Positions 7,251-46,308 of a stretch of DNA of 46,365 bases are shown here, piece by piece. Each line of letters opens with the position of its first letter. Position 1 is the first letter of the stretch. The DNA comes from Spirochaetota bacterium (lineage in GTDB: Bacteria > Spirochaetota > Spirochaetia > SPDA01 > JAJSAL01): positions 1-46,365 of the forward strand of contig JAJSAL010000044.1 in NCBI GenBank assembly GCA_024274705.1, in the 5' to 3' direction. The notes under the pieces were generated by a model. The model was not told the DNA's origin. It saw nothing but the letters and a program-made list of their open reading frames with translations, and did not search any database. The translations under genes were made by a program, and so were the position numbers.

Positions 7251-7266
7251 GTCCGGATCCTCCAGC

Positions 7267-23496: not shown

Positions 23497-25521
23497 TCAG
23501 CTCCGGCCGAGAATTTTCAGCATGTAAAGCTCGATGTACTGTTTGAACTCATCTTTATGTTTTATTTTTTCAAACGCCTTGTTGCCGGCAAGCCTCTCTG
23601 CCATGGACCTGATTCCGTTGGCATCAGGCGGTTTGATCAGAATGCCCCTTTTAAGGCCACGGATGAAATCCCGGATCATGCTGTTCACATCTTCTATCAG
23701 GTCTTTCCGGGCTTTTTCATCGAAGAGAGGATTCCACCGGGTCGTGAGTTCCTTCATACTTTTATCCAGGGATCCATCGGGTCCGACAAATTCCAGGGTA
23801 AGGGCTGCTATGTGCTTCCGGAAAACAACCATTTTTGCTTTAGCAGTCTGGCCGGAAGATGGTGCATCCCCTGCCGGGGCTGATGGTTTTTCCCGGGCTT
23901 CCTGGGTAGACACTTTTTTAAACCCGGCCCTCGGTTTATACGAAGGAGCGGTGGAAATGAAACCTCTCTTACTGCTTTGCTCTCGCTCCTTCCCTTTCTT
24001 CTTCCCTGAACCCCGGAGCAGCCTTTTCACTAAAACGAAGAGGGGGCCGAATACAGGCATCACCTGCCACATGGGCAGCCGTCTCCTGGCGTCCGTAAGC
24101 AGTTCGTTTCGATCGAGTTTCAGAATTTCATCCAGGGGAATCAGTGACTTTTGATTCACGTCAAAAAGACGGTTGATATTGAACTCCACCTGCTTTGATA
24201 GTGTTACTTCGTCTTTCGTCAGATAAAGAAGTTCATAGTTGAGCAGGACATGGAGAAGAGGGTCTTCCTGCTTCAGCCGGTCCTCCAGGGTTTTTAAGAA
24301 CCGGTCGTCATCGTTCATCACGCTGGAAGATTTCAGGTCCTTCATCTGCTCCGCCCATTCATCCACGAAACTCTGGCGGTAGGCGGAAGACGCTTTGAAA
24401 ATCTTCTTTACACACAGCGGAAGCACTGCATCTTTATGAATATAGTATTGTTTCTTCTCCGGTGTATTCAGACGCAGGACTTCAGGAATCGCTTTATCCT
24501 GCTCAGGACGGGTTCTCCGTTCGAGATAGGAATTAAGCTCCTCCCGGGAAACCTTTTTCGTTAACAGGATCCCTTTAGGGTCTTTGAAATTATAAATATC
24601 GGATACTGAAAAGAAATAAGGTTCTCTTTTAAGGGATTTTTCCACATACCTGAATGCCTCATGGCTATCTTTTTCCTTCCGGATAAGCCCTTTGTGAAAC
24701 ACGGCATAGAAACCGATGAGAAACGATGCCTGACAGAAACTCGTCTCCTCTGCAAGTTTATTCGTTTTCGGCCGGTACTCCTGGATGATGAGGTTAGCCA
24801 GAGTAGTCCAGAAACGGAAGGAAAACTCTGTGGGCTTAAGTATCTGCTCCAGGCTTTTTCCTGTTTTCACCATGATATCGTCGATGGTATCTTTCAGTAC
24901 AATATCCTTTTTACCCAGCACACCCTGCAGCTTATTGAAAATGTAGTTCGCGTTTCTCCGGGTCCCCATATATACCTTGATCTTGCCCAGGGAAAGTTCC
25001 AACAGATTTTTTTTGAGAACATTCCCTGGAATTATCATGGAATTGAACCCCTCAGGAAACGTAAGAAGTACGATGGAGGTATCCGGTGTTGCCTCCTTCT
25101 CTTTCAGCCAATCCACAAATTCACTTTTTACATTAATGACGGTCAGCAGTTCCTGGGGAATCTTCAAATTCAGCGTTTCTTCCGTGGGAAACGGGATTTC
25201 GGGGTTGCCTTCGATCCTCCTGTACTCATCCTGAAGGGTATCCCCAAAAAAATCAGGATACAGAACACGATGAATGAGTGTATCTTCGTATTCGAGTTTT
25301 ATTCTTTTTTCCGATGCCAGGCTTTCCAATTCAGCAGTAAGCACTGTCGCAGGATTTTCAAGAAACATTTTCAGTTCCGGATGTTTTTCCTTATATTTTT
25401 CAGCGTAATTCTGCACAAAGGTTTCGAAAGGTGCATACATCAGGCTAGGACTTTTCTTTTTCGCAGCATAGTACCTTATAATTTTTAATACTTCATTACT
25501 CTCTGACATACTTAAGCCCAT
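23497..25521 (-). CDS. Large Lys/Glu-rich hypothetical protein with a single central TM segment. No recognizable domain.
   Basis: Long ORF with protein-like composition. The start is set at an internal Met to avoid a 14-nt overlap with the upstream DUF456 gene. TM segment MWQVMPVFGPLFVLVKRLL. Confidence 0.5.
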   Translation of the reverse strand: MGLSMSESNEVLKIIRYYAAKKKSPSLMYAPFETFVQNYAEKYKEKHPELKMFLENPATVLTAELESLASEKRIKLEYEDTLIHRVLYPDFFGDTLQDEYRRIEGNPEIPFPTEETLNLKIPQELLTVINVKSEFVDWLKEKEATPDTSIVLLTFPEGFNSMIIPGNVLKKNLLELSLGKIKVYMGTRRNANYIFNKLQGVLGKKDIVLKDTIDDIMVKTGKSLEQILKPTEFSFRFWTTLANLIIQEYRPKTNKLAEETSFCQASFLIGFYAVFHKGLIRKEKDSHEAFRYVEKSLKREPYFFSVSDIYNFKDPKGILLTKKVSREELNSYLERRTRPEQDKAIPEVLRLNTPEKKQYYIHKDAVLPLCVKKIFKASSAYRQSFVDEWAEQMKDLKSSSVMNDDDRFLKTLEDRLKQEDPLLHVLLNYELLYLTKDEVTLSKQVEFNINRLFDVNQKSLIPLDEILKLDRNELLTDARRRLPMWQVMPVFGPLFVLVKRLLRGSGKKKGKEREQSSKRGFISTAPSYKPRAGFKKVSTQEAREKPSAPAGDAPSSGQTAKAKMVVFRKHIAALTLEFVGPDGSLDKSMKELTTRWNPLFDEKARKDLIEDVNSMIRDFIRGLKRGILIKPPDANGIRSMAERLAGNKAFEKIKHKDEFKQYIELYMLKILGRS

Positions 25522-25558
25522 CTTAATATCGGGTATATGTTGTGTCAAGGAAAGGAGA

Positions 25559-26050
25559 TTATCCTGCCCCAAGGGCTTTTACAAAGAAATAGAAAATCGT
25601 GCCGGAAACAGCCAGTTTAAGGATGATTGCAAGCATGGTACCGAGAAAAACGCCCCACCCGGCCCTGAGGGCGTTTCTTTTATCCTTACTGAAGATCATC
25701 TCCCCGGCAACGGCCCCGAGAAAGGTAAAGATAAGCATACCGAAAGGGGGCAGGACAAAAATACCCACAATCATGCCGATTATCGAGCCCCGGATACCGG
25801 CTTTTGAAGCTCCCTTTTTCTTCGAAGTGATCACAGGAAGGAAATAATCGAGAAGGGTCACCACAGCGGTGATAACGGCCATGATAATCAGGAACACCGG
25901 AGAAAAAGCTTCCCAGTCCCGCATAATGGAAACGAGAATAAGAGCTATGTAGCTCAACGCCGGCCCGGGAATGATAGGCAGAACACACCCGATAAACCCG
26001 ACGATAACCGAAGCAAAGCCTAAGGCAATAAGCAGAATATCCAGTACCAT
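25559..26050 (-). CDS. DUF456-family small membrane protein.
   Basis: GFIGCVLPIIPGP motif and four TM helices, ~160 aa. Confidence 0.65.
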   Translation of the reverse strand: MVLDILLIALGFASVIVGFIGCVLPIIPGPALSYIALILVSIMRDWEAFSPVFLIIMAVITAVVTLLDYFLPVITSKKKGASKAGIRGSIIGMIVGIFVLPPFGMLIFTFLGAVAGEMIFSKDKRNALRAGWGVFLGTMLAIILKLAVSGTIFYFFVKALGAG

Positions 26051-30161: not shown

Positions 30162-30527
30162 TTAGATATAGTATAACAAGTTGTACGGTTTTAGATCAAG
30201 ATCTCTGTTGACGCTTCTCCATACCGGTAATGAGTCTCCCGATGACGTCCAGTTCCCACCGGAACAGTGAAGCCTGCCGGCGAAATCCAGCACCCGCTGC
30301 TGGAGGGCTGTGTACCCAGGCTCCCCTGTATGCAGCGAAGCCTGGAGATACGCGTAGGTCTCAAGCTTGCCGGCGAGTTCAGCACTACCGGGAACGCTGC
30401 CCCGGCGGGATTCCCTCTCCAGTTCAGCGATATCGTTTACCAGTTCAGGGTCATCTATCGAGTCATAGAGTTCGGAAAGATCCCACCTGGGGATCAGGGG
30501 AGCCCCCTCGAAATCGAAATAGCGGCA
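30162..30527 (-). pseudogene. Coding-like open frame of ~120 codons with no ATG/GTG/TTG start in its first ~80 codons. It may be a gene remnant or a non-canonically initiated gene.
   Basis: The translation ...LSELYDSIDDPELVNDIAELERESRRGSVPGSAELAGKLETYAYLQASLHTGEPGYTALQQRVLDFAGRLHCSGGNWTSSGDSLPVWRSVNRDLDLKPYNLLYYI has protein-like composition. The frame opens just after a TGA inside the 3' end of the TrxR gene. Confidence 0.25.
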
Positions 30528-31777
30528 ATGGTGCCGTCAGCTACCGCTGTAGTGATTTGCCGGTACGTCTTGGTCCTCACATCACCTGCTGCATACACCC
30601 CTTCGATATTTGTCTGCATTTCCCCGTCTGTTACCAGGTACCCCCACTGATCCTTCGACAGGCGGGGGTCAAAACCGCTTAAGTTTGGAATAAATCCGAC
30701 AAATACGAACACCCCGTTGGTACGGAGGCTCTTTCTCCCGCCGGTTTTAAGATCTTCCACCACCACTTCCATGTCCATGGTACCGTGTTTCCTGAATGCC
30801 CGGGGTTCGTGCTCGAACATGAAGGTGATCCTGTTATCGGCAAAGGCTTTTTCCTGGGCCTCCTTGTTTGCCTGCAGTTCAGCAAACTGGTGGACGATGG
30901 TGATGCTGCGTGCGAATTTCGCTATGAACAGCGCTTCCTCGATGGCGGAATTCCCACCTCCAATGACAATGACATCCTTTCCTTCGTAGTATTTAGCGTC
31001 ACAGGTTGCACAGTAGGAAATACCGTTTCCCGCAAACTCCTTCTCCCCTTCCAGTCCCAGCGGCCTGGGAGAGGAACCTGTCGCGATAATGATCTTCCGG
31101 GCCTTTATCGTTTCGAATCCGTCAATGAGAACTTCCTTTTTATCCAGGTCCACCGAGGTCACATCAACAGCGGCCCGGTATGCAACTCCCGCTGCTTTAG
31201 TCTGCTCGCTCATATAATGGGCTAGCATAACACCCTGCTGGGGCTCGATAAAACCGGGGTAGTTGGAGACCTGGTGAGTCCTGGAGACATAACCGCCGGG
31301 AAGGGCGGTATCCACCAGGATTGTATCGACCCGGGCCTGAGCCAGGTAGAGTCCCGCCGTAAGGCCCGCGGGTCCTCCGCCGAGGATGAGAGCCTGGCAC
31401 CCGGTTTTCACCGGTTGTATGCTCTCACGGATCTCTTTTGCCCTGGCTTCCGGAAGCAAGCAGTCCAGCCGGTCCGTAAGGTCCGAACGCCTGATGCCCC
31501 CTGAAAGGCGGGAACCTGTTTCTTTCCCGTTCTTATAGAATATCAGGGTCGGAGAAGCGGTAACACCTAAGGACTCGGCGAACTCCCGGTTTTCCTGGCG
31601 GAATATCTTGAAAAACGAAATATCGTCCCCGTAGAGCTCGCTCACCGGTTCGTATTTAGCAGCCAGGGCTTCACAGGGGGGGCATTCTGTCGAGTAAAAA
31701 TCGAGCACTGCCCGCTCTGCACCCAGTACGTGTTCTTCGTAATCCTTTGCTTCTATTTCCGTTATTTTTCCAGCCAT
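30494..31777 (-). CDS. Thioredoxin - thioredoxin reductase fusion protein (N-terminal Trx domain, C-terminal FAD/NADPH TrxR).
   Basis: Start at MAGKITE, with an AAGGAG Shine-Dalgarno 7 nt upstream. Trx active site STECPPCE. TrxR motifs GGGPAGLTAG (FAD), CATCD (redox disulfide) and GGGNSA (NADPH). Confidence 0.8.
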   Translation of the reverse strand: MAGKITEIEAKDYEEHVLGAERAVLDFYSTECPPCEALAAKYEPVSELYGDDISFFKIFRQENREFAESLGVTASPTLIFYKNGKETGSRLSGGIRRSDLTDRLDCLLPEARAKEIRESIQPVKTGCQALILGGGPAGLTAGLYLAQARVDTILVDTALPGGYVSRTHQVSNYPGFIEPQQGVMLAHYMSEQTKAAGVAYRAAVDVTSVDLDKKEVLIDGFETIKARKIIIATGSSPRPLGLEGEKEFAGNGISYCATCDAKYYEGKDVIVIGGGNSAIEEALFIAKFARSITIVHQFAELQANKEAQEKAFADNRITFMFEHEPRAFRKHGTMDMEVVVEDLKTGGRKSLRTNGVFVFVGFIPNLSGFDPRLSKDQWGYLVTDGEMQTNIEGVYAAGDVRTKTYRQITTAVADGTIAAISISRGLP

Positions 31778-31787
31778 GATCAACTCC

Positions 31788-33026
31788 TTATGAATAGAGG
31801 GGAATACCCATCTCCAGCAGTTCCCTGACAGGCCTGCAGTCAGGCGCACGAATCGTTCCTTCCCGGTTTTTCGAGACGGCTCCGCACCCCCCGCCGCAGG
31901 CGAGCTGGAGATTGCACGTCCTGCACCCCGGAATCGTTGTAACATCCCTCTCTTCCCACTCTTCGATAGCTTCCCTCTTTTTACTCACCTCCGGAAAGAA
32001 GGTCCCCAATGATTCCCCTTCTTTACCCACCGTGGCAGTACAGGAATAGATTCTGCCTGTGTAATCGAAGGCCCATTCCGTCTTGCACCCGGGGCAGGAA
32101 TCGAAGAGGGGTCCCGGGAGTTCCCCGTTTTCGAAGAGAAACCGGGAAACTGAAAAAGCGGGCCGGTGAAAATCGAGAACTTCCGGATGTTGTTTTATGA
32201 GTTCGTAGAGGTCCCGGTACATCTCCACCCTGTCGTAGAGAATCCCGCTGTTTTTCTGGCAGGTATGCAGTTCGTAGTTCCTCCCCAGCTGGGTTTTAAA
32301 GTTGGGATCCCGGGTCCATCCCCTTTCCTTCGCGAACAGCGCCATCCCGGGCAGATCAGCAAGATTCCCCCTGTCCAGGACGATCCGGAGATTGACCGGG
32401 TACCCTGCGCCAAGGGCTGCGTCGATTCCCCGGACCACCTTCCCAAAGGTGCTTCCTCCCCCTAAGAGGGGGCGCCGTTTGTCATGAACATCCCCGACAC
32501 CGTCCAGGGTCACCTGGATTTCCCTGATTTCGATATCCTTACATTCCGGCAGGTACTCCTCCAGGTGATACCCGTTTGTAACCACCGCGACCCCCAGATT
32601 CCTCCGTGCCGCCCCCTGTAATAACCGGCGGATACGGTCCTTCGCCGTATTGCCCGGCAGGAGGGGCTCTCCCCCGAACAGGGTAAGGTACTTTTTCCTT
32701 CCGGAGAATTCGCCGTCGATGTATGTATAAAACGCATCGATTACAGCAGGATCCAGGGAGAGCTCTTTTCCGCTGTATTCCTGCTGGTAACAGTAGGCAC
32801 ATCCGAAGTTGCACCCGTACCAGGGTACGAAAAATATCTGTATCTCCCCTTCATCCCGGGCATCCAGGAAATCGAGATACGCTTTTTTATACAGGCGGGA
32901 CTCTTCTCCTTCGTCGAGGACATACCCTTTTTCCCGGTAAGGTGCGGGATCGGGAACCCTGCCCTTCCGGACATCTTCCGCTTCCTGTTTCGACAGGATA
33001 TCCGCATTTGCGGTAAGGATATTCAT
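31788..33026 (-). CDS. Radical SAM enzyme with a C-terminal SPASM domain (anSME/peptide-maturase-like).
   Basis: CNFGCAYC (CxxxCxxC) radical SAM cluster motif. SPASM cysteines CPGCKTEW...YSC and CRTCNLQLACGGGCGA. The start is set at Met66 (33024-33026), because the upstream part of the track ORF runs through an intrinsic terminator and is Cys/Arg/Trp-rich nonsense. Confidence 0.75.
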   Translation of the reverse strand: MNILTANADILSKQEAEDVRKGRVPDPAPYREKGYVLDEGEESRLYKKAYLDFLDARDEGEIQIFFVPWYGCNFGCAYCYQQEYSGKELSLDPAVIDAFYTYIDGEFSGRKKYLTLFGGEPLLPGNTAKDRIRRLLQGAARRNLGVAVVTNGYHLEEYLPECKDIEIREIQVTLDGVGDVHDKRRPLLGGGSTFGKVVRGIDAALGAGYPVNLRIVLDRGNLADLPGMALFAKERGWTRDPNFKTQLGRNYELHTCQKNSGILYDRVEMYRDLYELIKQHPEVLDFHRPAFSVSRFLFENGELPGPLFDSCPGCKTEWAFDYTGRIYSCTATVGKEGESLGTFFPEVSKKREAIEEWEERDVTTIPGCRTCNLQLACGGGCGAVSKNREGTIRAPDCRPVRELLEMGIPLYS

Positions 33027-35559: not shown

Positions 35560-35793
35560 TTGATGATGAACTATGTTGTCATCGACTCCACCCAGTGTAA
35601 AGGGTGCCGGCTCTGCATCGAGACCTGTCCCAGGCACTGTATCTCTTTAGGATCATCCCTGAACTCCATGGGTTTCCAGTACGCCTGTTTTCAGAGCTCA
35701 GAATGTACTGTTTGCGGTTTCTGCTACTACATCTGCCCTGAACCCGGGGCGATTACGGTACACAAAGGGGAACCCGAAGGAACCGCCTCATGA
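35560..35793 (+). CDS. 2-oxoacid:ferredoxin oxidoreductase delta subunit (2x[4Fe-4S] ferredoxin).
   Basis: CKGCRLCIETCP and CTVCGFCYYICP motifs, 77 aa. Confidence 0.8.
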   Translation: MMMNYVVIDSTQCKGCRLCIETCPRHCISLGSSLNSMGFQYACFQSSECTVCGFCYYICPEPGAITVHKGEPEGTAS

Positions 35794-36836
35794 ACAGGCA
35801 GCTGATGAAAGGAAACGAAGCCGTCGTATACGGTGCACTCCTGGGCGGGAGCACCCACTTTTTCGGATATCCCATCACTCCGGCCAGCGAAATCGCCCAT
35901 GCAGCGGCCTCCCTGTTCTCACAGACTGGTCGTGTGTTTCTCCAGGCGGAAGGTGAGGTGAATGCCATCAACATGGTGTACGGTGCGGCCGCGGCAGGAG
36001 CACGGGTGATGACAGCGACTTCCGGTCCCGGTCTTTCCCTGATGGCGGAAGGCATCTCGTATATCGCTGCCTGCGAGCTTCCCTGTGTGATCATCGATGT
36101 TCAGCGTGCCGGACCAGGCCTGGGAAATATCTGGCCGGAACAGAGCGACTACCACGCAGTTGTAAAAGGCGGGGGTCATGGTAATTATAAAAACATTGTC
36201 CTTGCTCCTAACTCCGCCCAGGAGATGTGTGATTTCACTTACAAAGCGTTTGGGCTTGCGGAAGAGTACAGGATGTCCGTCATTATCCTGTCCGACGCGT
36301 ACATTGGGCAGATGATGGAACCTGTGCAGCTGCCGGCAGAGATGAAGGCACCACACCGCCGGGAGTGGGCACTGTACGCAGATAGAGAGAGCAGGAACAA
36401 CCTGATCAATTCCATCTTCATGAATACCCGCCTCTCAGAGGAACACAACCTTCACCTTCAGGTTAAATATGCAGGGCTCCAGGGAACTGCGGAGTGGGAA
36501 GAATCATTTATCGATGACGCAGAGGTCCTGTTTGTCAGTTTCGGTATCGCCGCCCGTGTGTGCCTTTCAGCGGTATCGGACCTTCGCAGCCGGGGGGTAA
36601 AGGCGGGACTCCTCCGGCCGAAAACCTTGTACCCGTTCCCGGAAAGCCGTCTTAAGGAACTTGCGGTCCGGGCAAACCGGATAATAGTGGTAGAGCTGAA
36701 CAACGGGATGATGGCCGAGGATGTGGAACGCCTCTGCAGCGGTTCAACAGAGGTGGAGCGGTACAACTGGCTTGGCGGAACTGTACCTGCGTCCAGGATC
36801 ATCGTGGATAGGGTATTGGGAGAGAGCCATGATTAA
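35790..36836 (+). CDS. 2-oxoacid:ferredoxin oxidoreductase alpha subunit.
   Basis: MKGNEAVVYGALLGGSTHFFGYPITPASEI is a typical KorA/PorA/VorA N-terminus, ~350 aa. Confidence 0.85.
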   Translation: MNRQLMKGNEAVVYGALLGGSTHFFGYPITPASEIAHAAASLFSQTGRVFLQAEGEVNAINMVYGAAAAGARVMTATSGPGLSLMAEGISYIAACELPCVIIDVQRAGPGLGNIWPEQSDYHAVVKGGGHGNYKNIVLAPNSAQEMCDFTYKAFGLAEEYRMSVIILSDAYIGQMMEPVQLPAEMKAPHRREWALYADRESRNNLINSIFMNTRLSEEHNLHLQVKYAGLQGTAEWEESFIDDAEVLFVSFGIAARVCLSAVSDLRSRGVKAGLLRPKTLYPFPESRLKELAVRANRIIVVELNNGMMAEDVERLCSGSTEVERYNWLGGTVPASRIIVDRVLGESHD

Positions 36837-38244
36837 ATACTCAAAACCCGGGGCATTCTATGACCTTTTTACCCGAAAAGGAACGGAACAGCAGAACACC
36901 CACTATTGTCCCGGCTGCGGCCACGGTAACGCTCATAAGCTGATCGCAGAAGTAATCGACGAGCTGGACATCCAGAACCGGGTGATCTTCATCTCTCCTG
37001 TGGGATGCAGCGTATTCGGCTACTACTATTTTGACACGGGAAACATCCAGGCCGCCCACGGACGTGCACCCGCTGTAGCCACAGGACTGCGCAGGGCTTT
37101 AGACGACGCAATCATCATATCCTACCAGGGTGACGGCGACCTTGCGGGTATCGGCCTGGGAGGGATCATTCATGCGGCCAACCGGGGAGAGAACATCACC
37201 GTGTTTTTCATCAATAATGCGATCTACGGTATGACCGGCGGGCAGATGGCCCCAACTACCCTTCTCGGGCAGAAAACCCTGACAACACCCTTCGGGCGGG
37301 AGGCAGGAAAGGACGGGAGCCCCATAGGTATGGCGGAGCTGATGAATGCCCTTTCACCCCCTGTGTTCATCGAGCGGGTTTCCCTTGCAACGGCACCCAA
37401 GATCCTGAAAGCGAAAAAGGCCTTTAAAACCGCACTGGTAAACCAGGTGGAGAAAAAAGGATTTTCCTTCGTCGAGGTGCTGTCCCCCTGCCCGGTCAAC
37501 TGGAAGATGAATGCTGTTGATTCCCGAAAGTGGATCGAAGATCAGCTCGAGCCGGTGTTCCCGGTGAATAACTTCAGGAACAGGGAGGACGCTGAATCTC
37601 AGAGTTTTATTCAACAGCCGATGGATGATGAGCGGGTGCTGGCCCTTTTGCATTCAAAAAAAGAGATTGAGCTTCCTAAGCACGCTAAGAAGGTAGAGGA
37701 TCAATTCATCAAGATAGCCGGGTTCGGTGGTCAGGGGGTAATGTCCGCCGGGATTCTGATAGCAAACTGTGCCAACGTGGAAGGTCGGCATACCACGTGG
37801 CTGCCCTCCTACGGCCCTGAAATGCGGGGCGGTACTGCAAACGCTTCGGTCATCATATCCGGCAGGCGGATAGGTACTCCTCTGGTAGATGAACCGAATG
37901 TACTCATCGCCATGAATACACCCTCCCTGGACACCTTCGAGGAGCAGGTTAAACCCGGCGGACTGATCATCGTAAACACTTCCATTGTAAAAAGAGCGGT
38001 AAAACGGAAAGATGTACAGGTATACACCATTCCGGCAACTGATCTGGCAAAAAAAGAAGGGGTGCTCGCTGCGGCAAATGTGGCAATTACCGCTGCATAT
38101 ACACTCCTCACAGGTGCAGTCCAAATTGCTACATTGAAACAGGTGCTTCCCCTCTCCATCAAACGAAAGGATATAATCGATATCAACCTGAAGGTAATGG
38201 CTGCTGCAGAACGCTACGTCCGGGACCATCCGATTCAGGCATAA
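36829..38244 (+). CDS. 2-oxoacid:ferredoxin oxidoreductase fused beta (TPP-binding) and gamma subunits.
   Basis: Beta: CPGCGHG and the GDGD TPP motif. After a linker, the gamma domain KIAGFGGQGVMSAGILIANCA...YGPEMRGGTA. The start overlaps the alpha stop (ATGATTAA). Confidence 0.85.
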   Translation: MIKYSKPGAFYDLFTRKGTEQQNTHYCPGCGHGNAHKLIAEVIDELDIQNRVIFISPVGCSVFGYYYFDTGNIQAAHGRAPAVATGLRRALDDAIIISYQGDGDLAGIGLGGIIHAANRGENITVFFINNAIYGMTGGQMAPTTLLGQKTLTTPFGREAGKDGSPIGMAELMNALSPPVFIERVSLATAPKILKAKKAFKTALVNQVEKKGFSFVEVLSPCPVNWKMNAVDSRKWIEDQLEPVFPVNNFRNREDAESQSFIQQPMDDERVLALLHSKKEIELPKHAKKVEDQFIKIAGFGGQGVMSAGILIANCANVEGRHTTWLPSYGPEMRGGTANASVIISGRRIGTPLVDEPNVLIAMNTPSLDTFEEQVKPGGLIIVNTSIVKRAVKRKDVQVYTIPATDLAKKEGVLAAANVAITAAYTLLTGAVQIATLKQVLPLSIKRKDIIDINLKVMAAAERYVRDHPIQA

Positions 38245-38747: not shown

Positions 38748-39293
38748 TTAGGATCCGTTCAGCAGGTCGAACCCTTTTTTCATGGCCAGCAGATTTATCG
38801 CGTTAAGTGCTTTGTTCCTGGAAGATACAGCCTCGTCAAGGGCTTTCAGCGCCGTATCCAGGCTGGTCAGGTACGGACGGAGTTTGAATAGTACGCCCAG
38901 GGTTACCATGTTGGCGGATCTTAAGGAACCTGCACCTGCGGCTATATCGTTTGCCTTGACAGGTACGATTTCAATGTCCGACCTTTCGGGTTCCACATCG
39001 ATAAGGGAAGTATTGTAGATGAGAAGTCCCCCGGGGAGAACAGCCGGTTCGAACCGCAGCAGGGACGGTTTATTCATGATTACGCAAATTGACGGCTTCC
39101 GGATGACCGGTGACGCTACCTCATCATCGGTCACCACGACAGAACAGTTTGCCGTTCCTCCACGCATCTCGGCCCCGTAGGATGGAAGATGGGACACCGC
39201 CTTCCCTTCCCGCATGGCCGCTATACAAAGGATCCTCCCGGAAAGAAGTACTCCCTGTCCGCCAAACCCGGCGAAAATAATTTCTTCTGTCAT
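38748..39293 (-). CDS. 2-oxoacid:ferredoxin oxidoreductase gamma subunit (second operon).
   Basis: FAGFGGQGVLLSGRILCIAAMREG...YGAEMRGGTA, 181 aa. Confidence 0.8.
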   Translation of the reverse strand: MTEEIIFAGFGGQGVLLSGRILCIAAMREGKAVSHLPSYGAEMRGGTANCSVVVTDDEVASPVIRKPSICVIMNKPSLLRFEPAVLPGGLLIYNTSLIDVEPERSDIEIVPVKANDIAAGAGSLRSANMVTLGVLFKLRPYLTSLDTALKALDEAVSSRNKALNAINLLAMKKGFDLLNGS

Positions 39294-39304
39294 AGTACCT
39301 GTCC

Positions 39305-40060
39305 TTACCTGTCTCTGAAATTCTTGATCGGATAATAGGGAGTCATCACATTCTCCACCCAGTCCGCGGCGTCAGGTGTGGTCATTCCCCACCCGGTGGG
39401 GCACATGGAAAGAAACTCCACGAACGAGTATCCCTTCCCATTCACCTGGTTTTCCAGGGCTTTTTTAACAGCTTTTTTTGCCCTCAGGATGTTCTTTACA
39501 CTGTTAACGGAACACCGTTCGATAAACACCGGAGCTTCCAGAGTATTGATCAATTCGCAGGCACGGATGGGGAAACCCGCTTCAACAGGGTCCCGCCCGT
39601 ACGGCGAGGTCTGAGTTTTCTGACCTTCCATGGAGGTAGGAGCCATCTGCCCGCCGGTCATACCGTAGATGGCATTGTTTACATAGAATACGGTGATTTT
39701 CTCTCCACGGTTGGCGGCGTGGATGGATTCCCCTGTTCCTATGGCAAGGAGGTCCCCGTCCCCCTGGTATGCTATGATCGTTTTGTCCGGAAGGGCCCTT
39801 TTCAAACCGGTTGCCACGGCCTGGGCCCTGCCGTGAGCAGATTCGATGCCGTCAGCCAGGATGTAGTAGTAGATAAATACACTGCATCCTACAGGCGAAA
39901 CGACGATGGTTTGATCCTGTATACCGAGCTCATCGATTGCAGATGCCATCAATTTATGTATCGTTCCATGACCGCAGCCCGGGCAGTAATGGGTCGGCTT
40001 TTCCGTATGGGATTGAGGCCTGGAATAGACCAGTTTCATCTCTTCTTTTGTATCAATCAT
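39305..40060 (-). CDS. 2-oxoacid:ferredoxin oxidoreductase beta subunit (TPP-binding).
   Basis: CPGCGHG and GDGD motifs. It is paralogous (~55-60% identity by eye) to the beta part of the 36829..38244 gene. Confidence 0.85.
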   Translation of the reverse strand: MIDTKEEMKLVYSRPQSHTEKPTHYCPGCGHGTIHKLMASAIDELGIQDQTIVVSPVGCSVFIYYYILADGIESAHGRAQAVATGLKRALPDKTIIAYQGDGDLLAIGTGESIHAANRGEKITVFYVNNAIYGMTGGQMAPTSMEGQKTQTSPYGRDPVEAGFPIRACELINTLEAPVFIERCSVNSVKNILRAKKAVKKALENQVNGKGYSFVEFLSMCPTGWGMTTPDAADWVENVMTPYYPIKNFRDR

Positions 40061-41105
40061 GCTGTTCTACCCTCTTCATGATTTCTTCCACGTCAGGTAC
40101 GGTTCCTCCGGATCTGCCGTAGAAAGTGATGGGCCTTTTTCTGCCCAGCGCGAGTTTTACGTCCTCGATCATCTGTCCTTCATTCATCTCTACGACGAGC
40201 ACCCGTTCCGCATGGGAACAGTCCCGGGCCAGTTGTTCATACGGAAAGGGCCACAGGGTAATCGGCCTGAAAAGCCCCGCTTTGATCCCTTTTTTCCGCA
40301 GTCCGTTTATTGCGGCCTTACAGATCCGTGCAGAAATACCGAAGGCGGCTATCACGATATCCGCGTCTTCTACGTTATAGGTTTCGTACCGTATTTCCCC
40401 GGCTTCTATTTCCCGGTATCGTCCCTGGAGCATCTTGTTGTGTTCCTCCAGTTTTATTTCCGGCTTCAATCTTAAGGAACGGACGACCCGGGGTTCCCGT
40501 CCTTTACACCCTGTAACAGTCCATCCGGATTTATCGAAGGTTTTCCCGCTGGGTTCCGGCAGGACAAGGGGTTCAGACATCTGCCCCAGGTAGCCGTCGC
40601 CCAGGATCATCGCTACCACCCTGTACCGGTCAGCCAGATCAAAAGCGAGGACCGTAAGGTCTGCCGACTCCTGTACAGTACTCGGAGCCAGCACGATGGT
40701 ACGGTAATCCCCATGGCCCCCGCCCCGGGTGGCCTGGAAATAATCGGATTGGGCTCCGGATATATTGCCCAGTCCGGGACCTCCCCGCATCATATTCACT
40801 ACCACAGCCGGCAGCTCCGCCCCGGACATGTAGGAAATGCCTTCCTGTTTCAAACTGATACCCGGGGAAGACGATGAAGTCATCACCCTCTTTCCCGTGG
40901 CGGAGGTACCGAATACCATATTGATCGAAGCAATTTCACTTTCCGCCTGCACAAAAACTCCCTCCACCTGGGGAAGTCTCATGGACATGTAAGCAGGAAT
41001 TTCATTCTGCGGGGTGATAGGATAAGCGTAGTAGTATCTGCACCCGGCTATGATTGCCGCTTCCGCGATAGCTTCATTCCCTTTCATTAAAACTGTGGTG
41101 CTCAT
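40053..41105 (-). CDS. 2-oxoacid:ferredoxin oxidoreductase alpha subunit.
   Basis: MKGNEAIAEAAIIAGCRYYYAYPITPQNEI, 350 aa. Confidence 0.85.
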   Translation of the reverse strand: MSTTVLMKGNEAIAEAAIIAGCRYYYAYPITPQNEIPAYMSMRLPQVEGVFVQAESEIASINMVFGTSATGKRVMTSSSSPGISLKQEGISYMSGAELPAVVVNMMRGGPGLGNISGAQSDYFQATRGGGHGDYRTIVLAPSTVQESADLTVLAFDLADRYRVVAMILGDGYLGQMSEPLVLPEPSGKTFDKSGWTVTGCKGREPRVVRSLRLKPEIKLEEHNKMLQGRYREIEAGEIRYETYNVEDADIVIAAFGISARICKAAINGLRKKGIKAGLFRPITLWPFPYEQLARDCSHAERVLVVEMNEGQMIEDVKLALGRKRPITFYGRSGGTVPDVEEIMKRVEQHD

Positions 41106-41344
41106 TTCTTACCCTCACCTACGGTTTCTTTCCTGTATTTCCACACACGTACCACCAGATCGGGACAGATAATTGCACAGAATGTGCAGGCTGTACATTT
41201 ATCCGGATCGATGCATTCCGGGTACCGGTGTCCCTGACTGTTATATATTTCTGTCATAGCCAGAATATGTTCCGGACAGGCTCCGATGCAGAGTTCACAC
41301 CCTTTGCACCGCTCTATGTCGAATTCGGGTTTACCCTTTGCCAC
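41102..41344 (-). CDS. 2-oxoacid:ferredoxin oxidoreductase delta subunit (2x[4Fe-4S] ferredoxin).
   Basis: CKGCELCIGACP and CTACTFCAIICP motifs. Confidence 0.8.
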   Translation of the reverse strand: MAKGKPEFDIERCKGCELCIGACPEHILAMTEIYNSQGHRYPECIDPDKCTACTFCAIICPDLVVRVWKYRKETVGEGKK

Positions 41345-41361: not shown

Positions 41362-42237
41362 TTATTTTTTCAGCGACTGTTTCAACTCTTCTACAGCTTC
41401 TTCTTTCATACTAAACGACTGATCATCCCCGGGAAAAGTTGCATCCTCAATATCCCGGATGAACTCTTTTACAGCATTCAACTGGGTAGTATATACATCA
41501 GCATACACCTTAACGAATTTCGGTGTGAACCGTCTGAACAGGCCCACCATATCGTGAAGAACCAGGACCTGACCATCACAATAAACACCGCCACCGATCC
41601 CGATGGTGGGAATCGAGACTTTTTCGGTGATCAACTGGGACAGCTGTTTGGGTATCGCCTCCAGAATCAGGGCGAAGGCACCTGCATCCTCCAGCGCAAA
41701 AGCGTCATCCATCACTTTTTTCGCATTATCCAGGGACCTTCCCTGAACTTTAAACCCTCCCATAAGAGCTGCGGTCTGGGGAGTAAGACCGATATGGCCG
41801 AAGACGGGTATTCCGGCTTTATGGATAGCGGCAACCTTGTCCGCCATTTCCATCCCCCCTTCGAGTTTCACCGAATCGGCGCCTCCGTCTTTATACAGAA
41901 TCCCCGCATTGGTAACGGCCTGCTCTACAGAGATATTGTACGACATAAACGGCATGTCACCCACTACATGAGCCCGTGCAACCGCCCGTACAACCGCCCG
42001 GGTATGATGGAGCATTTCGGCCATGGTGACCGGGACCGTATCTTTGTATCCCAGCTCCACCATACCCAGGGAATCCCCCACCAGGATGATATCGATGCCT
42101 GCTTCGTCCACTATAAGACCCTGGGGATATGAATAGGCGGTAATCATGGAAATTTTCTTGCCTTCCCCTTTCATATTCAACAGATCGGAAATAAGCACTT
42201 TGTTAACCGGTTCCGGATGAACACTCATTGTCGGCAC
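41362..42237 (-). CDS. panB: 3-methyl-2-oxobutanoate hydroxymethyltransferase (ketopantoate hydroxymethyltransferase).
   Basis: KISMITAYSYPQGLIVDEAGIDIILVGDSLGMV matches the PanB signature. It lies 18 nt upstream of, and on the same strand as, the second oxidoreductase operon. Confidence 0.85.
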   Translation of the reverse strand: MPTMSVHPEPVNKVLISDLLNMKGEGKKISMITAYSYPQGLIVDEAGIDIILVGDSLGMVELGYKDTVPVTMAEMLHHTRAVVRAVARAHVVGDMPFMSYNISVEQAVTNAGILYKDGGADSVKLEGGMEMADKVAAIHKAGIPVFGHIGLTPQTAALMGGFKVQGRSLDNAKKVMDDAFALEDAGAFALILEAIPKQLSQLITEKVSIPTIGIGGGVYCDGQVLVLHDMVGLFRRFTPKFVKVYADVYTTQLNAVKEFIRDIEDATFPGDDQSFSMKEEAVEELKQSLKK

Positions 42238-42285
42238 TCCTCAACATTGATGATATTTCTGTATTATTCACCAAATTCCCGTTTG

Positions 42286-42315
42286 TTGACAATCCCTCGA
42301 AGGCTATTCTATTCT
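42286..42315 (+). promoter_or_regulatory. Candidate sigma70 promoter TTGACA-18-TATTCT for the peptidase-panE-M20-coaX operon.
   Basis: Hexamers read directly. It lies in the divergent region shared with panB. Confidence 0.3.
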
Positions 42316-42363
42316 GTAACAATACAGGGAAAGTGATTCCCCTGAAAACTGCCGGGTTGTAGG

Positions 42364-43362
42364 ATGGAAAGAATGAAAGATGCAATTGTAGATGTACCGG
42401 GAATACTGGTCGGTCATGCACAGGACCTGCAGGCGGGAACGGGCTGTACTGTTGTGACCTGCAAGCAGGGCGCTGTGACCGGTGTGGACTGCAGGGGCGG
42501 AGCACCCGGAACCAGGGAGCTTACCCTTCTTAATCCGGAAAATGTTGTTCCCGTTGCCCACGCCGTATATATAGGAGGCGGGAGCGCCTTCGGCCTGGCA
42601 GGGGCCGATGGGGTGATGCAGTACCTTGAAGAGAGGAAGATCGGGTTTGACACCGGTTTCGCTCACGTTCCCATTGTTCCCGGCGCAATTCTGTTCGATC
42701 TGCTCATCGGTGATGCCAAACGACGCCCGGACAAACAGATGGGATATGATGCCTGTCTCAACATGAGCGATTCCAATACGGAACAGGGAACCGTCGGTGC
42801 AGGAACCGGTGCCGTGGTAGGAATAGCCGGCGGAGGCTCTGCAGTGATGAAAGGAGGAATCGGTACAGCCGGTATCAACCGAAACGGCTTGATCCTAGGG
42901 GCTCTTATCGCGGTAAACAGCATAGGAAACGTGGTCGACCCGGTATCAGGCGAAATCATAGCCGGGGCCTTAGGTCCGGAGGGTACATCCTTTCTTTCAA
43001 TTCTCGATATTCTTTCCAGGCACCCGGAAAAAGCAGCGGATGATTTCATCAAGCACACAACCATCGGGGTGGTAGCCACTAATGCAAAACTGACAAAAGC
43101 ACAGGCGAAACGGGTGGCAATGGTTGCCCACGACGGTATGGCAAGAACGATCATCCCCTCCCACACTCTGACAGACGGGGACACCCTGTTCTGCATGTCT
43201 GCGGGGTCTATCGAGGCATCGTTAAATGCGGTATGCATCCTTGCGGCCGAAGCAGTATCCCGGGCTATTCTGAAGGCTGTCAAATCGGCGACATCCATCT
43301 GTGGTGTAACAAGTTATACAGAACTATCCAAAGGGAAATCGGATCAGGTGCCCGGGTCATGA
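42364..43362 (+). CDS. DmpA/BapA-family (peptidase S58 / P1) aminopeptidase-amidase.
   Basis: DVPGILVGHAQD...AGTGCTVVTC at the N-terminus and a Gly-rich autoprocessing region. An alternative start is MKDAIV at 42373, which has a better Shine-Dalgarno. Confidence 0.75.
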   Translation: MERMKDAIVDVPGILVGHAQDLQAGTGCTVVTCKQGAVTGVDCRGGAPGTRELTLLNPENVVPVAHAVYIGGGSAFGLAGADGVMQYLEERKIGFDTGFAHVPIVPGAILFDLLIGDAKRRPDKQMGYDACLNMSDSNTEQGTVGAGTGAVVGIAGGGSAVMKGGIGTAGINRNGLILGALIAVNSIGNVVDPVSGEIIAGALGPEGTSFLSILDILSRHPEKAADDFIKHTTIGVVATNAKLTKAQAKRVAMVAHDGMARTIIPSHTLTDGDTLFCMSAGSIEASLNAVCILAAEAVSRAILKAVKSATSICGVTSYTELSKGKSDQVPGS

Positions 43363-44291
43363 ACATAGCAGTGATAGGCGCCGGGGCCATGGGCTCTCTC
43401 TACGGAGGTTATTTACATGCAGCCGGATGCGACGTGCTGCTTTACGATATCTATCATGAACACGTAGACGCAATTAATGCCAAGGGGCTGGTTATCGAAG
43501 AGCCGGCTGAAAACAGGGAAGAGCGGGTTCACCCTTTCGCGACAACCGATCCGGCGGGAATCGCTGATGCGGACGTTCTTATCGTGTTTGTAAAGTCCAC
43601 GGCCACCGAGTCGGTTGCCCGGCAGTTTAAAACGACGGTATCCCGGGATGCCGTTGTGGTAACCCTGCAGAACGGGTATGGAAACGAGGAGATCCTGAGA
43701 AATGTGTTCGGAAAAGAGCGTACGGCAGCAGGGGTAACCTCGGAAGGGGCGACCTTCCTGGGTCCCGGCCGTATACGTCACGCCGGAAGGGGACCTACAT
43801 ACTTAAGCATGTCCGACATGAACAACGAAAAGCTTAAACCCTTTATACGATGTCTCGAACAGGCTGGATTCGAAGCACATATCGAAAAACGGATACACGA
43901 TCTTATCTGGAGCAAACTCATCATCAATGTGGGGATCAACGCCCTTACCGCACTCACCGGTCTGAAAAACGGAGAGCTCCTTGATTTCGAAGAGACCCGG
44001 AGCCTGGTAAGGGAACTCGTGGAGGAGGCGGTATCTGTAGCCGGCGCCATGGGTGTGCACCTGACATACGATGATCCGGTGGCAGCGGTGTTCGATGTCG
44101 CCGGGAAAACAGCCCTTAACCGCTCTTCCATGCTTCAGGATTTCGACAGGAAAAGAACCTCGGAAATTCAGTTCATCAACGGTGCAATACTACGGGAAGC
44201 AGAGCGGGCGGGGATCCCTGTACCGGTAAACACGACCATCACCCGGCTGGTATCCACGGCGGATGCGGTACACCGGCGGGGAACATCATGA
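43359..44291 (+). CDS. panE: 2-dehydropantoate 2-reductase (ketopantoate reductase, ApbA/PanE family).
   Basis: The Rossmann N-terminus MNIAVIGAGAMGSLYGGYL and the ApbA-family C-terminal domain. Its start overlaps the peptidase stop (ATGA). Confidence 0.75.
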   Translation: MNIAVIGAGAMGSLYGGYLHAAGCDVLLYDIYHEHVDAINAKGLVIEEPAENREERVHPFATTDPAGIADADVLIVFVKSTATESVARQFKTTVSRDAVVVTLQNGYGNEEILRNVFGKERTAAGVTSEGATFLGPGRIRHAGRGPTYLSMSDMNNEKLKPFIRCLEQAGFEAHIEKRIHDLIWSKLIINVGINALTALTGLKNGELLDFEETRSLVRELVEEAVSVAGAMGVHLTYDDPVAAVFDVAGKTALNRSSMLQDFDRKRTSEIQFINGAILREAERAGIPVPVNTTITRLVSTADAVHRRGTS

Positions 44292-45523
44292 TCAGTTCCG
44301 AAGAAAAGATTCTTATTGAAGCTGTTGACCGGGATGAACTGATCGAACTAACCAGGAACCTGGTGCGAATCGATTCGGTTATCCGGCCGGAAACGGGGAA
44401 CACCGAAAAAGAGACGGTTCGGTTTATCGCGGAATGGATCGAAGAGGAGTTGGGTGTTCCCGCGGTTGTCGAAGAAGTGGAACCGGGACGGGAGAATGTC
44501 AGTGCTCTCATTGACTCCGGCAGACAAGGCAGATGTCTCCTCCTGGAAGGACATACCGATGTGGTTTCCGAGGGGGATCATTCTCTGTGGAAACACCCTC
44601 CATTCGAAGCTGTCATGGAACATGGAAGAATATACGGCCGGGGTTCCTGCGACATGAAAGGAGGCCTTGCGGTGAACCTTATCACAGGGAAAGCCCTCCT
44701 TCGGAGTGGTGTCCCCTTTTCCGGAAAACTAAAACTTGCCATTGTCTGCGATGAAGAAGGCATGATGATCGGTATTAAGGACTACATCCGGAAAGGCCAC
44801 GCAGATGGGGTGGATGCAGCCCTGCTGTCCGAACCGGAGGAAAACCAGCTCTGCCTGAGCATGAAAGGGGCCATCCGGGCCCTGGTGAGGGTCAATGGGA
44901 GAATGGCCCACGGAGCCATGCCCAGGACAGGCATCAATCCCGCCACCAGGCTGGCGCGAATCATCCTGGCATACGAACGCTACGAGACAGAGGAAATATC
45001 CCGCTGCGGTGAAGACCCGTTTTTAGGATTTCCTTCTATCACCTTTACCGTCATTCACGCACCTCCCCCTGGAGAACCGGCCCAGCTCAATGTGATGCCC
45101 GGTACAGCTACAGGATATCTGGATATACGTACCGTACCCGCCCAGAATCACCACGATATCCGAACACGGCTCAAGGAAATTCTCACAGAACTCGCAGAGA
45201 GCGATCCTGATTTTTCGGCGGAAATTGATTTTATCGAAGACCGGCCCGTTGTCTCTATGGAAAAAACAGAACCCATAGTACAGTATGCGAAAGGAGCCTA
45301 CAGGGACATAACAGGTAAAGCGCCTGTTTACAACGGGGTCCCCGGTGCTACGGACGGAACCTTTTTACGGGCATGGAGAGGGATTCCTTCCCTGGTAAAC
45401 GGACCGGGTCCGCGGCATATGCCCCACCGGACGGATGAATATATCGATACCGATGAATTATACGAAGCGGCCTGTATCTATGTTCTTACCGCTTACCGGT
45501 TCTTGAGCGGGGATTCGGCATAA
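44288..45523 (+). CDS. M20-family metallo-amidohydrolase (ArgE/DapE/carnosinase/beta-alanine-synthase family).
   Basis: LLLEGHTDVV and DMKGGLA metal-ligand motifs. Its start overlaps the panE stop (ATGA). Confidence 0.75.
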   Translation: MISSEEKILIEAVDRDELIELTRNLVRIDSVIRPETGNTEKETVRFIAEWIEEELGVPAVVEEVEPGRENVSALIDSGRQGRCLLLEGHTDVVSEGDHSLWKHPPFEAVMEHGRIYGRGSCDMKGGLAVNLITGKALLRSGVPFSGKLKLAIVCDEEGMMIGIKDYIRKGHADGVDAALLSEPEENQLCLSMKGAIRALVRVNGRMAHGAMPRTGINPATRLARIILAYERYETEEISRCGEDPFLGFPSITFTVIHAPPPGEPAQLNVMPGTATGYLDIRTVPAQNHHDIRTRLKEILTELAESDPDFSAEIDFIEDRPVVSMEKTEPIVQYAKGAYRDITGKAPVYNGVPGATDGTFLRAWRGIPSLVNGPGPRHMPHRTDEYIDTDELYEAACIYVLTAYRFLSGDSA

Positions 45524-45531
45524 ACAAGGAG

Positions 45532-46308
45532 TTGATCATGCTGTTAGCGGTTGATATCGGGAATACCAATATCGTCATAGGCATCTATGACCAGGGCACA
45601 TGGAAGCATCATTGGCGTATCCGTACTGTCCAGGAAAAGATGCCCGACGAGTACCGGGTTCTGTTTCGTCATTTCCTGCACGAAGCCGGCCTGGAACTTG
45701 ATTCTCCGGATCAGGTGTATATTTCCAGCGTTGTCCCTCCCCTTACCGGTGGGATAAGTCAGATGCTGGGAGAACAGACAAAAAACGTTCCGGTTATCAT
45801 CAACCATACAATCAATACGGGTCTCTCCTTTGCCGTAGATAATCCGGCGGAGGTGGGACCGGACCTGATAGCAGACGCTGTGGCTGCCCATTCCCGGTTC
45901 AACGATGCATGCATCATCGTCGACTTCGGAACCGCTACGACCCTTACGGCGGTAACCGGGAAGCTCGAGTTCTTAGGTGTAGCCATAGCACCGGGAATGG
46001 GACTCTCCGCAGCCGCCCTTGCAGGCAACACGGCCCAGCTTCCCAACATCGACATATCACCTCCGGCGAAATGCATCGGCAGGAATACGCCGGAATCCAT
46101 TCAATCCGGGATCGTTCTTGGCAACCTGAGCATGGTGGAAGGAATGATAGACAGGATGCGGAAAGAGATGGGCACCGAAGCTAAAGCTATTGCTACAGGC
46201 GGACTTGCGCCACTGATGGCTCCCCTTACTGATTACTTCTCGGCAATCGATCCATGGCTTACCCTGGAAGGGATACGCCTGATAGCTCTGAAAAACCGAC
46301 GAGGATAA
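45532..46308 (+). CDS. coaX: Type III pantothenate kinase.
   Basis: MLLAVDIGNTNIVIGIY is the CoaX/Baf signature N-terminus, ~255 aa. Confidence 0.85.
   Translation: MIMLLAVDIGNTNIVIGIYDQGTWKHHWRIRTVQEKMPDEYRVLFRHFLHEAGLELDSPDQVYISSVVPPLTGGISQMLGEQTKNVPVIINHTINTGLSFAVDNPAEVGPDLIADAVAAHSRFNDACIIVDFGTATTLTAVTGKLEFLGVAIAPGMGLSAAALAGNTAQLPNIDISPPAKCIGRNTPESIQSGIVLGNLSMVEGMIDRMRKEMGTEAKAIATGGLAPLMAPLTDYFSAIDPWLTLEGIRLIALKNRRG

Follow-up and report, generated by a model that had tools for sequence, protein, structure and literature searches.

Two amidohydrolases embedded in a pantothenate/CoA operon of a Spirochaetota bacterium: a candidate precursor-scavenging module

Introduction

The synthesis of pantothenate and of coenzyme A (CoA) is considered fully mapped, yet the source of beta-alanine is unknown in many bacteria without panD (PMC6593275). 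A contig of a Spirochaetota bacterium (JAJSAL010000044.1; 46,365 bp), which at its whole length is the window analysed in this study, raises this question in a concrete form, as it carries an operon in which the genes of ketopantoate reductase (panE) and type III pantothenate kinase (coaX) alternate with those of two amidohydrolases, one of family S58 and one of family M20. What, then, do two hydrolases do among the genes of a vitamin pathway? A first-pass annotation had proposed that they generate beta-alanine for pantothenate synthesis. With the operon and its relatives in other genomes, two genes can be named as concrete candidates, along with a conserved importer, and the arrangement points to an undescribed scavenging of vitamin B5 or of its beta-alanine half.

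Results

Organization of the operon

The genes and the control region in question are as follows.

41362–42237, minus strand: panB, ketopantoate hydroxymethyltransferase (PF02548, 364 bits; TIGR00222, 318 bits, cut-off 207.55)
42238–42363, no strand assigned: divergent control region of 126 nt with back-to-back sigma-70-like promoter sites
42364–43362, plus strand: S58/P1 self-processing N-terminal nucleophile (Ntn) amidohydrolase of the ThnT/Nyl50/TvgC branch, 332 aa (PF03576)
43359–44291, plus strand: panE, 2-dehydropantoate 2-reductase (TIGR00745, 281.5 bits; PF02558; PF08546)
44288–45523, plus strand: M20A metallo-deacylase of ArgE/DapE type (TIGR01910, 231.5 bits)
45538–46308, plus strand: coaX, type III pantothenate kinase (NF009855, 267.2 bits; PF03309, 211 bits)

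Analysis of the open reading frames (ORFs) gave one plus-strand operon in the order S58, panE, M20 and coaX, in which the panE ATG shares an ATGA with the S58 stop codon (43359–43362), and the M20 ATG shares one with the panE stop codon (44288–44291). The four genes lie where they were first annotated, and coaX has no overlap with M20: the M20 stop codon TAA (45521–45523) is followed by AAGGAG, a TTG at 45532 and an ATG at 45538. The mechanical coaX ORF begins at the TTG, but the true start is most likely the ATG, because it has a proper Shine-Dalgarno spacing (6 nt after AAGGAG) and the NCBIfam alignment begins at residue 3. The S58 gene has an alternative ATG at 42373, which agrees with the N-termini of its relatives. 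The profile scores leave no ambiguity for PanB, PanE and CoaX; those of PanE and CoaX exceeded the respective cut-offs of TIGR00745 (141.35) and NF009855 (233), and panE has panB in its neighbourhood, which indeed lies divergently just upstream of the operon.

In the 126 nt that separate panB and S58, a promoter is predicted on each strand, TTGACA (42286) with an 18-nt spacer and TATTCT (ending at 42315) on the plus strand, and TTGTCA (42292) with AATAAT (ending at 42263) on the minus strand. A TTGACA(A) box, −35-like, is common to most of the related spacers upstream of S58 or of ackA, and nothing else is shared among them. A known RNA or riboswitch in the leader was rejected, as Rfam found no match anywhere in the window. 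The panB/S58 spacer of one related locus (L037, about 7700–7990) contains tandem hairpin-like units of about 22 nt, GGGGTTGCCTTCGGCAACTCAA, that are partly N-masked.

Neither PanC nor PanD was matched in the 46,365-bp contig (tblastn with the E. coli queries, E≤1e-3), in line with the earlier statement that panD is absent from it; this and the other within-window negatives apply to the contig only.

Linkage of the S58 gene with pantothenate and CoA genes in other genomes

A scan for S58 orthologues with one genome per species yielded 80 loci (48–62% identity), whose neighbours were assigned by tblastn and ORF clustering. Within the flanking sequence covered, PanB, PanE, CoaX, CoaBC or PanC was found in 35 of the 80 loci, and a CoA-pathway gene in half of those with at least 10 kb of flanking sequence (24/48), against about 5% expected for a random gene by our rough estimate. 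The orthologues that stand beside CoA genes share 48–69% identity and occur in differing gene orders, which are written below with arrowheads in the direction of transcription.

The closest relatives have PanB<>AckA>S58>PanE>M20>CoaX (L002, L003) or PanB<>AckA>S58>PanE (L001), and the spirochaete-type loci in general PanB<>[AckA]S58>PanE>[M20], after which a convergent ATP-binding cassette (ABC) transporter of LIV type often comes; four loci (L037, L044, L062, L070) have PanB<>S58 with ABC<M20<PanE< downstream. A single direction of transcription, ABC>M20>S58>PanE>PanB, is found in Atribacterota (L016, L020), and Thermovenabulum (L074) has M20>class-III aminotransferase>PanB>OPT transporter>S58>PanE>aldehyde:ferredoxin oxidoreductase. 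Loci of Chloroflexota have CoaX>CoaBC>S58 (L068, L082, L085) or CoaBC>S58 (L073, L084), and two others have S58>CoaX with a 13-nt gap (L069) and BirA>S58>ECF S-component>CoaX (L066). At the S58>CoaX locus, which comes from a metagenome-assembled genome (MAG) of Thermoanaerobacteraceae, a gene of the Orn/DAP/Arg-decarboxylase family lies divergently beside the pair (6510–7787).

PanC occurs in two S58 loci only, both without M20, and PanD in one of these. In Dehalococcoidia (L072, 7995–11808) the order is S58>DUF2520/Rossmann PanG-type ketopantoate reductase>PanB>PanC, and PanD was not found at this locus; S58 stands there in the usual position of PanD. The other locus (L082) has the full array PanB-PanE-PanC-PanD-CoaX-CoaBC-S58.

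The linkage thus spreads over Spirochaetota, Atribacterota, Thermovenabulum, Chloroflexota, Dehalococcoidia and other Firmicutes with differing gene orders, and its recurrence in many genomes makes a chance arrangement very improbable. In support of the first-pass annotation, both hydrolases keep company with pantothenate genes well beyond close kin (see also below), so they are almost certainly accessories of the pathway, not passengers.

Eight spirochaete-type loci (L001–L003, L024, L030, L054, L055, L064) have an ackA-type kinase gene in the interval from panB to S58. L023 retains a remnant of it, the first about 20 codons (1305–1547), and the window has lost it altogether. A role of its product as a pantoate-activating kinase was dropped, as the protein passes the ackA model TIGR00016 (421 bits against 293), is confined to spirochaete-type loci and is absent from the window.

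Linkage of the M20 gene, and the adjoining importers

The M20 gene occurs with PanE, PanB or S58 in several lineages, usually adjoining an importer. Two loci have PanE>M20 with an ATGA overlap and a LIV-type ABC transporter, without S58 or PanB (L089, L090), and in one M20 stands alone (L088). A metagenome scan added PanB..PanE>M20 (L096), PanE>M20 (L097), S58>M20 (L098, L130), M20>PanE>PanB (L123) and Dpp-type permeases>M20>S58>PanB>PanE (L103). A further locus (L092, 16680–19912) has PanB<LarA-like<S58<Dpp-type ABC with a divergent M20, and PanE was not detected in it; its LarA-like gene, of the nickel-pincer 2-hydroxyacid racemase family, could act on pantoate, a 2-hydroxy acid. A sister clade of M20 proteins (43–46% identity; L104–L118, e.g., L115, 3603–11266) is found in a conserved cluster with the genes of D-Glu cyclase, of a class-III aminotransferase and of a Dpp-type peptide ABC transporter, and an aminotransferase of this type is also part of the pan module in L016, L062 and L074.

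In different lineages, importers of four kinds adjoin S58 or M20, namely LIV-type ABC, Dpp-type ABC, OPT and ECF S-components. The LIV-type binding protein is distant from LivJ/LivK (E about 1e-15 to 1e-10; 54.7 bits against a cut-off of 477).

The S58 protein belongs to the ThnT/Nyl50/TvgC branch

The S58 protein matched PF03576 with 152.4 bits (residues 6–315 against positions 1–302 of the 307 of the profile), and no NCBIfam model. BLASTP gave 42% identity with ThnT across 306 columns (E=3e-42; 38–39% in the fold match) and 43% with Nyl50, and the protein shares with ThnT, not with Nyl50, the motif RGG(A/G)PGTRE. A search of the PDB sequences returned Nyl50 (9CXR), an L-aminopeptidase/D-esterase (9YYS), ThnT and NylC, while DmpA and BapA were not matched even at E≤10. 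An AlphaFold model of moderate confidence (pLDDT 68.6, pTM 0.78) served for fold matching only; the best Foldseek matches were ThnT (E=6e-26; PDB title 'a pantetheine hydrolase') and Nyl50, followed by NylC at about 23% identity and DmpA/BapA at 16–17%. ThnT is thus the nearest characterised enzyme by both sequence and fold, with Nyl50 equally close.

The predicted nucleophile, Thr232, aligns with Thr282 of ThnT and Thr227 of Nyl50, and D271-G-D273-T, N185 and K163 are invariant across 18 S58 relatives. The residue before the nucleophile is His231 (CAC, 43054–43056), while it is Asn in 17 of the 18 relatives and in ThnT and Nyl50. Self-processing at this site is predicted to give fragments of 23.3 and 10.3 kDa. 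As judged from sequence, the protein is a member of the ThnT/Nyl50/TvgC branch and not the DmpA/BapA beta-aminopeptidase for which it was first taken, an assignment that fails on the lack of a match at E≤10, the low fold identity and the Thr nucleophile in place of Ser.

In a neighbour-joining (NJ) tree, a crude one with BLOSUM distances and midpoint rooting, CoA-linked contexts appear in nearly every major clade of S58. ThnT groups with L092 and L130 and Nyl50 with L103, so both characterised enzymes fall inside the CoA-linked S58 set. Of 1.84 billion 50%-identity representatives, 7,200 matched the protein at E≤1e-3, and 1,127 did so at E≤1e-30. Fusions of S58 were also observed (P0311, P0251, P0280, P0272, P0336, P0289), with a sodium:solute symporter (SSS), with GNAT (two cases), with HPPK of the folate pathway, with the repair enzyme NAD(P)HX dehydratase and with LysM. 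The SSS half of the SSS-S58 fusion is not supported as PanF (29 bits against a cut-off of 328).

The M20 protein is an ArgE/DapE-type deacylase

The M20 protein exceeded the cut-off of the ArgE/DapE model TIGR01910 (231.5 bits against 217.6) and stayed below that of every DapE/ArgE equivalog (NF006365, 212.7 against 289; TIGR01892, 147 against 298; TIGR01246, 111 against 362). Among solved structures, the best match is a probable DapE (7UOI, E=2e-42). The di-metal site is kept, as the metal and catalytic positions H89, D122, E156, E157, E182 and H380, which we take to correspond to the DapE ligands, are conserved in 12 orthologues. Membership of the carnosinase, beta-ureidopropionase or PepV groups was rejected: carnosinase (3DLJ, E=2e-3) and PepV (E=5.5e-9) matched on the metal motif only, and beta-alanine synthase was not among the matches at E≤0.01. 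The protein is therefore an ArgE/DapE-type deacylase, and not the carnosinase or beta-ureidopropionase of the first-pass annotation. It is not ArgE proper in an arginine context either, a possibility that would have spoken against a pantothenate role, as the equivalog cut-offs were missed and no arg or dap genes were found in the annotated 11.7–46.4 kb of the window or in the related loci. In an NJ tree, the pan-linked M20 proteins are scattered through the M20 family.

Genes next to panB and elsewhere in the window

A four-subunit 2-oxoacid:ferredoxin oxidoreductase is encoded immediately downstream of panB and in the same orientation.

38748–41344, minus strand: the four-subunit oxidoreductase as a whole
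41102–41344, minus strand: delta subunit, ferredoxin
40053–41105, minus strand: alpha subunit
39305–40060, minus strand: beta subunit
38748–39293, minus strand: gamma subunit

The ferredoxin (Fer4) and gamma (POR gamma) subunits were identified by Pfam, and the alpha and beta subunits by synteny with L002 (POR_N/TPP_enzyme_C). The pairing of panB with this oxidoreductase is also found in L002, L016, L018, L020 and L051, and the enzyme may supply or consume 2-ketoisovalerate. In L001, L051, L055 and L064, panB adjoins FolD and formate-tetrahydrofolate (THF) ligase (FTHFS). Together, the oxidoreductase and FolD/formate-THF ligase could feed PanB with 2-ketoisovalerate, by reductive carboxylation of isobutyryl-CoA, and with methylene-THF.

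PanB is 72–82% identical to PanB of Spirochaetales MAG loci, and the nearest M20 homologues bear Spirochaetales names, which identifies the source as a Spirochaetota MAG. Further genes in the window are a second oxidoreductase set on the plus strand (35790–38244), a 1373-aa protein of the CoA-enzyme activase type that joins BcrAD/BadFG ATPase domains to DUF2229 (19251–23372), a 690-aa ORF without Pfam match (23497–25572), and a fusion of thioredoxin with a pyridine-nucleotide disulfide oxidoreductase (30494–31945).

Discussion

Very probably, both hydrolases are dedicated accessories of the supply of pantothenate/CoA precursors and act on something imported. As for what they act on, the reading that we favour, tentatively and short of calling it probable, is a precursor-scavenging module, in which S58 would take an N-acyl-beta-alanyl amide such as pantetheine, and M20 a conjugate that bears a carboxylate. 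The operon would then link pantoate synthesis (panB, panE) and the phosphorylation of pantothenate (coaX) to two amidohydrolases that recover precursors from amide-linked, peptide-like compounds, probably imported breakdown products of CoA, as CoA fragments would be the only ubiquitous beta-alanine-containing compounds in necromass. The S58 enzyme, a putative self-processing N-terminal-Thr hydrolase, would have pantetheine as its prime candidate substrate and convert it to pantothenate and cysteamine, and the pantothenate would go to CoaX, as a type III kinase presumably unable to phosphorylate pantetheine. ArgE/DapE-type di-metal deacylases require a free carboxylate beside the scissile amide, and therefore M20 would take a complementary substrate, freeing beta-alanine or pantothenate from N-acyl- or N-carbamoyl-beta-alanine, a beta-alanyl dipeptide or pantothenoyl-cysteine. 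The CoaX of B. subtilis has no pantetheine kinase activity (PMC11487621), so an organism with CoaX only needs a hydrolase to use pantetheine. The panC coaA double mutant of B. subtilis, which is left with CoaX, is unable to use pantethine (PMC11487621). This limit of CoaX, the precedent of ThnT, the S58-CoaX/CoaBC operons without M20 and PanC, and the presence of S58 together with PanD in L082 are the reasons why a pantothenoyl-amide hydrolase is favoured for S58. The reading as a whole also draws on the two ATGA overlaps of the operon, the place of ThnT and Nyl50 inside the CoA-linked S58 set, the CoA genes beside S58 in differing orders, the adjoining importers with the SSS-S58 fusion, the S58-GNAT fusions, and the metal and catalytic residues kept by M20.

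Several points weigh on the other side. An identity of 42% does not transfer specificity, and the family is promiscuous, as its nylonases Nyl50 and TvgC illustrate (PMC11601465, PMC11720373); ThnT itself was reported to act on a carbapenem-bound pantetheinyl group (PMC6097109). His231 of S58 replaces the Asn of nearly all relatives, which may bear on the efficiency of processing, and most of the Atribacterota orthologues of S58 have no pan/CoA genes nearby. The role proposed for M20 is a guess, and the sister M20 clade, with its D-Glu cyclase, class-III aminotransferase and peptide ABC transporter, indicates general peptide chemistry. Further, the salvage of finished pantothenate gives no obvious reason for a tie to panB and panE in many lineages. 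That tie, and the PanG-PanB-PanC operon of Dehalococcoidia without PanD, fit a supply of beta-alanine better.

Such a supply, which is close to what was first proposed, would mean that S58 and/or M20 make free beta-alanine for PanC in organisms without PanD, from imported beta-alanyl amides or peptides or from N-acyl- or N-carbamoyl-beta-alanine; in an extended form, S58 might open dihydrouracil, which has an N-acyl-beta-alanyl carbonyl, and M20 then remove the carbamoyl group. We regard it as the main rival, possible but rather doubtful. The module of PanB, PanE, M20 and S58 without PanC or PanD at the locus, in Spirochaetota, Atribacterota, Thermovenabulum and metagenome lineages, is better explained by it than by precursor scavenging, as is the Dehalococcoidia operon. 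The importers adjoin the genes, the class-III aminotransferase of L016, L062 and L074 could interconvert beta-alanine and malonate semialdehyde, and the chemistry of ThnT is already aimed at a beta-alanyl carbonyl. The source of beta-alanine is moreover a recognised gap, in 95 of the gut strains analysed (PMC6593275), and an M20-type beta-alanine synthase of alpha-proteobacteria feeds pantothenate synthesis (PMC7142369). However, S58 lies outside the beta-aminopeptidase branch and M20 outside the beta-ureidopropionase and carnosinase branches, no dihydropyrimidine dehydrogenase was seen, and of more than 40 module loci only 2 contain PanC, the consumer of beta-alanine. In Chloroflexota and Firmicutes, S58 occurs with CoaX/CoaBC and without M20 or PanC, and L082 has it next to the whole panB-E-C-D set, which argues against a simple substitute of PanD. 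That PanC is absent wherever M20 stands with PanB or PanE, while the two PanC-bearing loci lack M20, could also be taken to mean that PanC, with or without PanD, is displaced, and that PanB-PanE-M20-S58 is an ATP-independent, PanC-free route to pantothenate that replaces panBCDE in anaerobes of several phyla. M20 would then reversibly condense pantoate and beta-alanine under the pull of CoaX, or S58 would be an ArgJ-like acyl transferase. The gene order PanE-M20-CoaX is that of the pathway, and S58 shares the DmpA/OAT fold with ornithine acetyltransferase. Nevertheless, both the route and its mechanism appear very unlikely, as ATP-independent amide synthesis is strongly unfavourable (by a rough estimate, nanomolar pantothenate at millimolar substrates), PanC could lie elsewhere in the module-bearing genomes, and the sister clades of M20 resemble ordinary hydrolases.

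There are two other explanations. S58 and M20 could be general peptidases of a peptide-fermenting anaerobe, with branched-chain amino acids imported by the LIV-type ABC transporter and the pan genes there through the metabolism of valine and 2-ketoisovalerate (oxidoreductase, ackA, ptb). The contexts with 2-oxoacid:ferredoxin oxidoreductase, TIGR00016-positive ackA, phosphate butyryltransferase and the LIV-like transporter are consistent with this, as are the many S58 orthologues with unrelated neighbours and the solitary M20 of L088. We consider it unlikely, since the adjacency of S58 to CoaX/CoaBC and of M20 to PanE recurs across unrelated phyla in differing orders and with translational coupling, and the binding protein is only distantly related to LivJ/LivK. 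Alternatively, pantetheine and pantothenate could be degraded for energy through S58, M20 as a pantothenase, the reversed steps of PanE and PanB, the oxidoreductase, Ptb and Ack, or wrong pantoyl- or pantothenoyl-amides could be hydrolysed as a form of proofreading. Pantothenate, as an N-acyl-beta-amino acid with a free carboxylate, is a substrate of the M20-deacylase type; panB is co-directional with the oxidoreductase, in relatives it stands with FolD and FTHFS, and ackA and ptb are adjacent, while the fusion of S58 to NAD(P)HX dehydratase, a repair enzyme, would suit proofreading. Yet the presence of coaX in the operon speaks for CoA synthesis, the scarcity of vitamins makes them unfit as a source of energy, and no precedent was found, so that degradation or proofreading seems decidedly improbable. 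Precursor scavenging remains the reading that we favour, and if true, it would improve predictions of vitamin auxotrophy for uncultured anaerobes of Spirochaetota, Atribacterota, Chloroflexota and Caldisericota.

Comparison with known systems

The enzyme families concerned are known, while the literature found makes no mention of them as a conserved part of pantothenate/CoA operons, and a literature search returned nothing relevant that ties S58, DmpA or L-aminopeptidase to pantothenate. For the missing beta-alanine, known PanD-free routes are the M20-type beta-alanine synthase AmaB, which feeds pantothenate synthesis in alpha-proteobacteria (PMC7142369), the pyridoxal phosphate-dependent aspartate decarboxylases PanP/DVU0867 (PMC10102598), and a promiscuous 1,3-diaminopropane route in Acinetobacter (PMC9213253). 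The problem that these routes solve is the same, and AmaB is also of the M20 family, but the M20 protein of the operon is of another branch, and the cluster has neither a decarboxylase nor pyrimidine-degradation genes. With ArgE/DapE (M20A) the operon's M20 shares the family model and the metal and catalytic residues, and it differs from them in the missed equivalog cut-offs and in its partners, which are PanE, PanB, S58 and importers.

The reaction proposed for S58, from pantetheine to pantothenate and cysteamine, is catalysed in animals by the vanin pantetheinases, which have an unrelated fold of the nitrilase superfamily. DmpA and BapA share with S58 the PF03576 domain, the alpha-beta-beta-alpha Ntn fold and the self-processing of the family, and differ in the Ser nucleophile as well as in the low fold identity given above. 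Closer is ThnT of Streptomyces cattleya (PDB 3TM1, 3S3U), with the same fold, the same position of the N|T processing site, and the RGGxPGTRE and DGDT motifs. However, ThnT has 419 aa with insertions and belongs to a secondary-metabolite cluster, whereas S58 stands in a primary pantothenate/CoA operon and has His before the nucleophile. ThnT cleaves the pantetheinyl amide and frees cysteamine, as reported on the carbapenem-bound group (PMC6097109), and according to a 2026 review it is the only known microbial pantetheine hydrolase, with none known in primary metabolism (PMC13602198). In the thienamycin cluster, the GNAT protein ThnF was proposed to form N-acetylated thienamycin derivatives (PMC6097109); the S58-GNAT fusions parallel this ThnT/ThnF pair, and by analogy the fused GNAT could acetylate the amine freed by S58.

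Nyl50 (PDB 9CXR), TvgC and NylC are of the same family as S58, Nyl50 being as close as stated above and NylC proper only remotely similar. The hydrolysis of nylon by Nyl50 and TvgC is a non-native, promiscuous activity, and their native function was not addressed (PMC11601465, PMC11720373). The S58 protein of the Thermovenabulum locus (L074, 8001–8975) has 325 aa, 33.86 kDa, Thr234 and predicted fragments of 24.3 and 9.6 kDa, values that equal those of the published nylonase TvgC of Thermovenabulum gondwanense (PMC11720373). By this agreement, self-processing and the cleavage of linear aliphatic amides have apparently been demonstrated for at least one member of the pan-linked clusters, and the native context of TvgC appears to be a pantothenate gene cluster. 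Precursor scavenging, if true, would thus offer a likely native role for an enzyme family that has been studied only for its accidental nylon-degrading activity.

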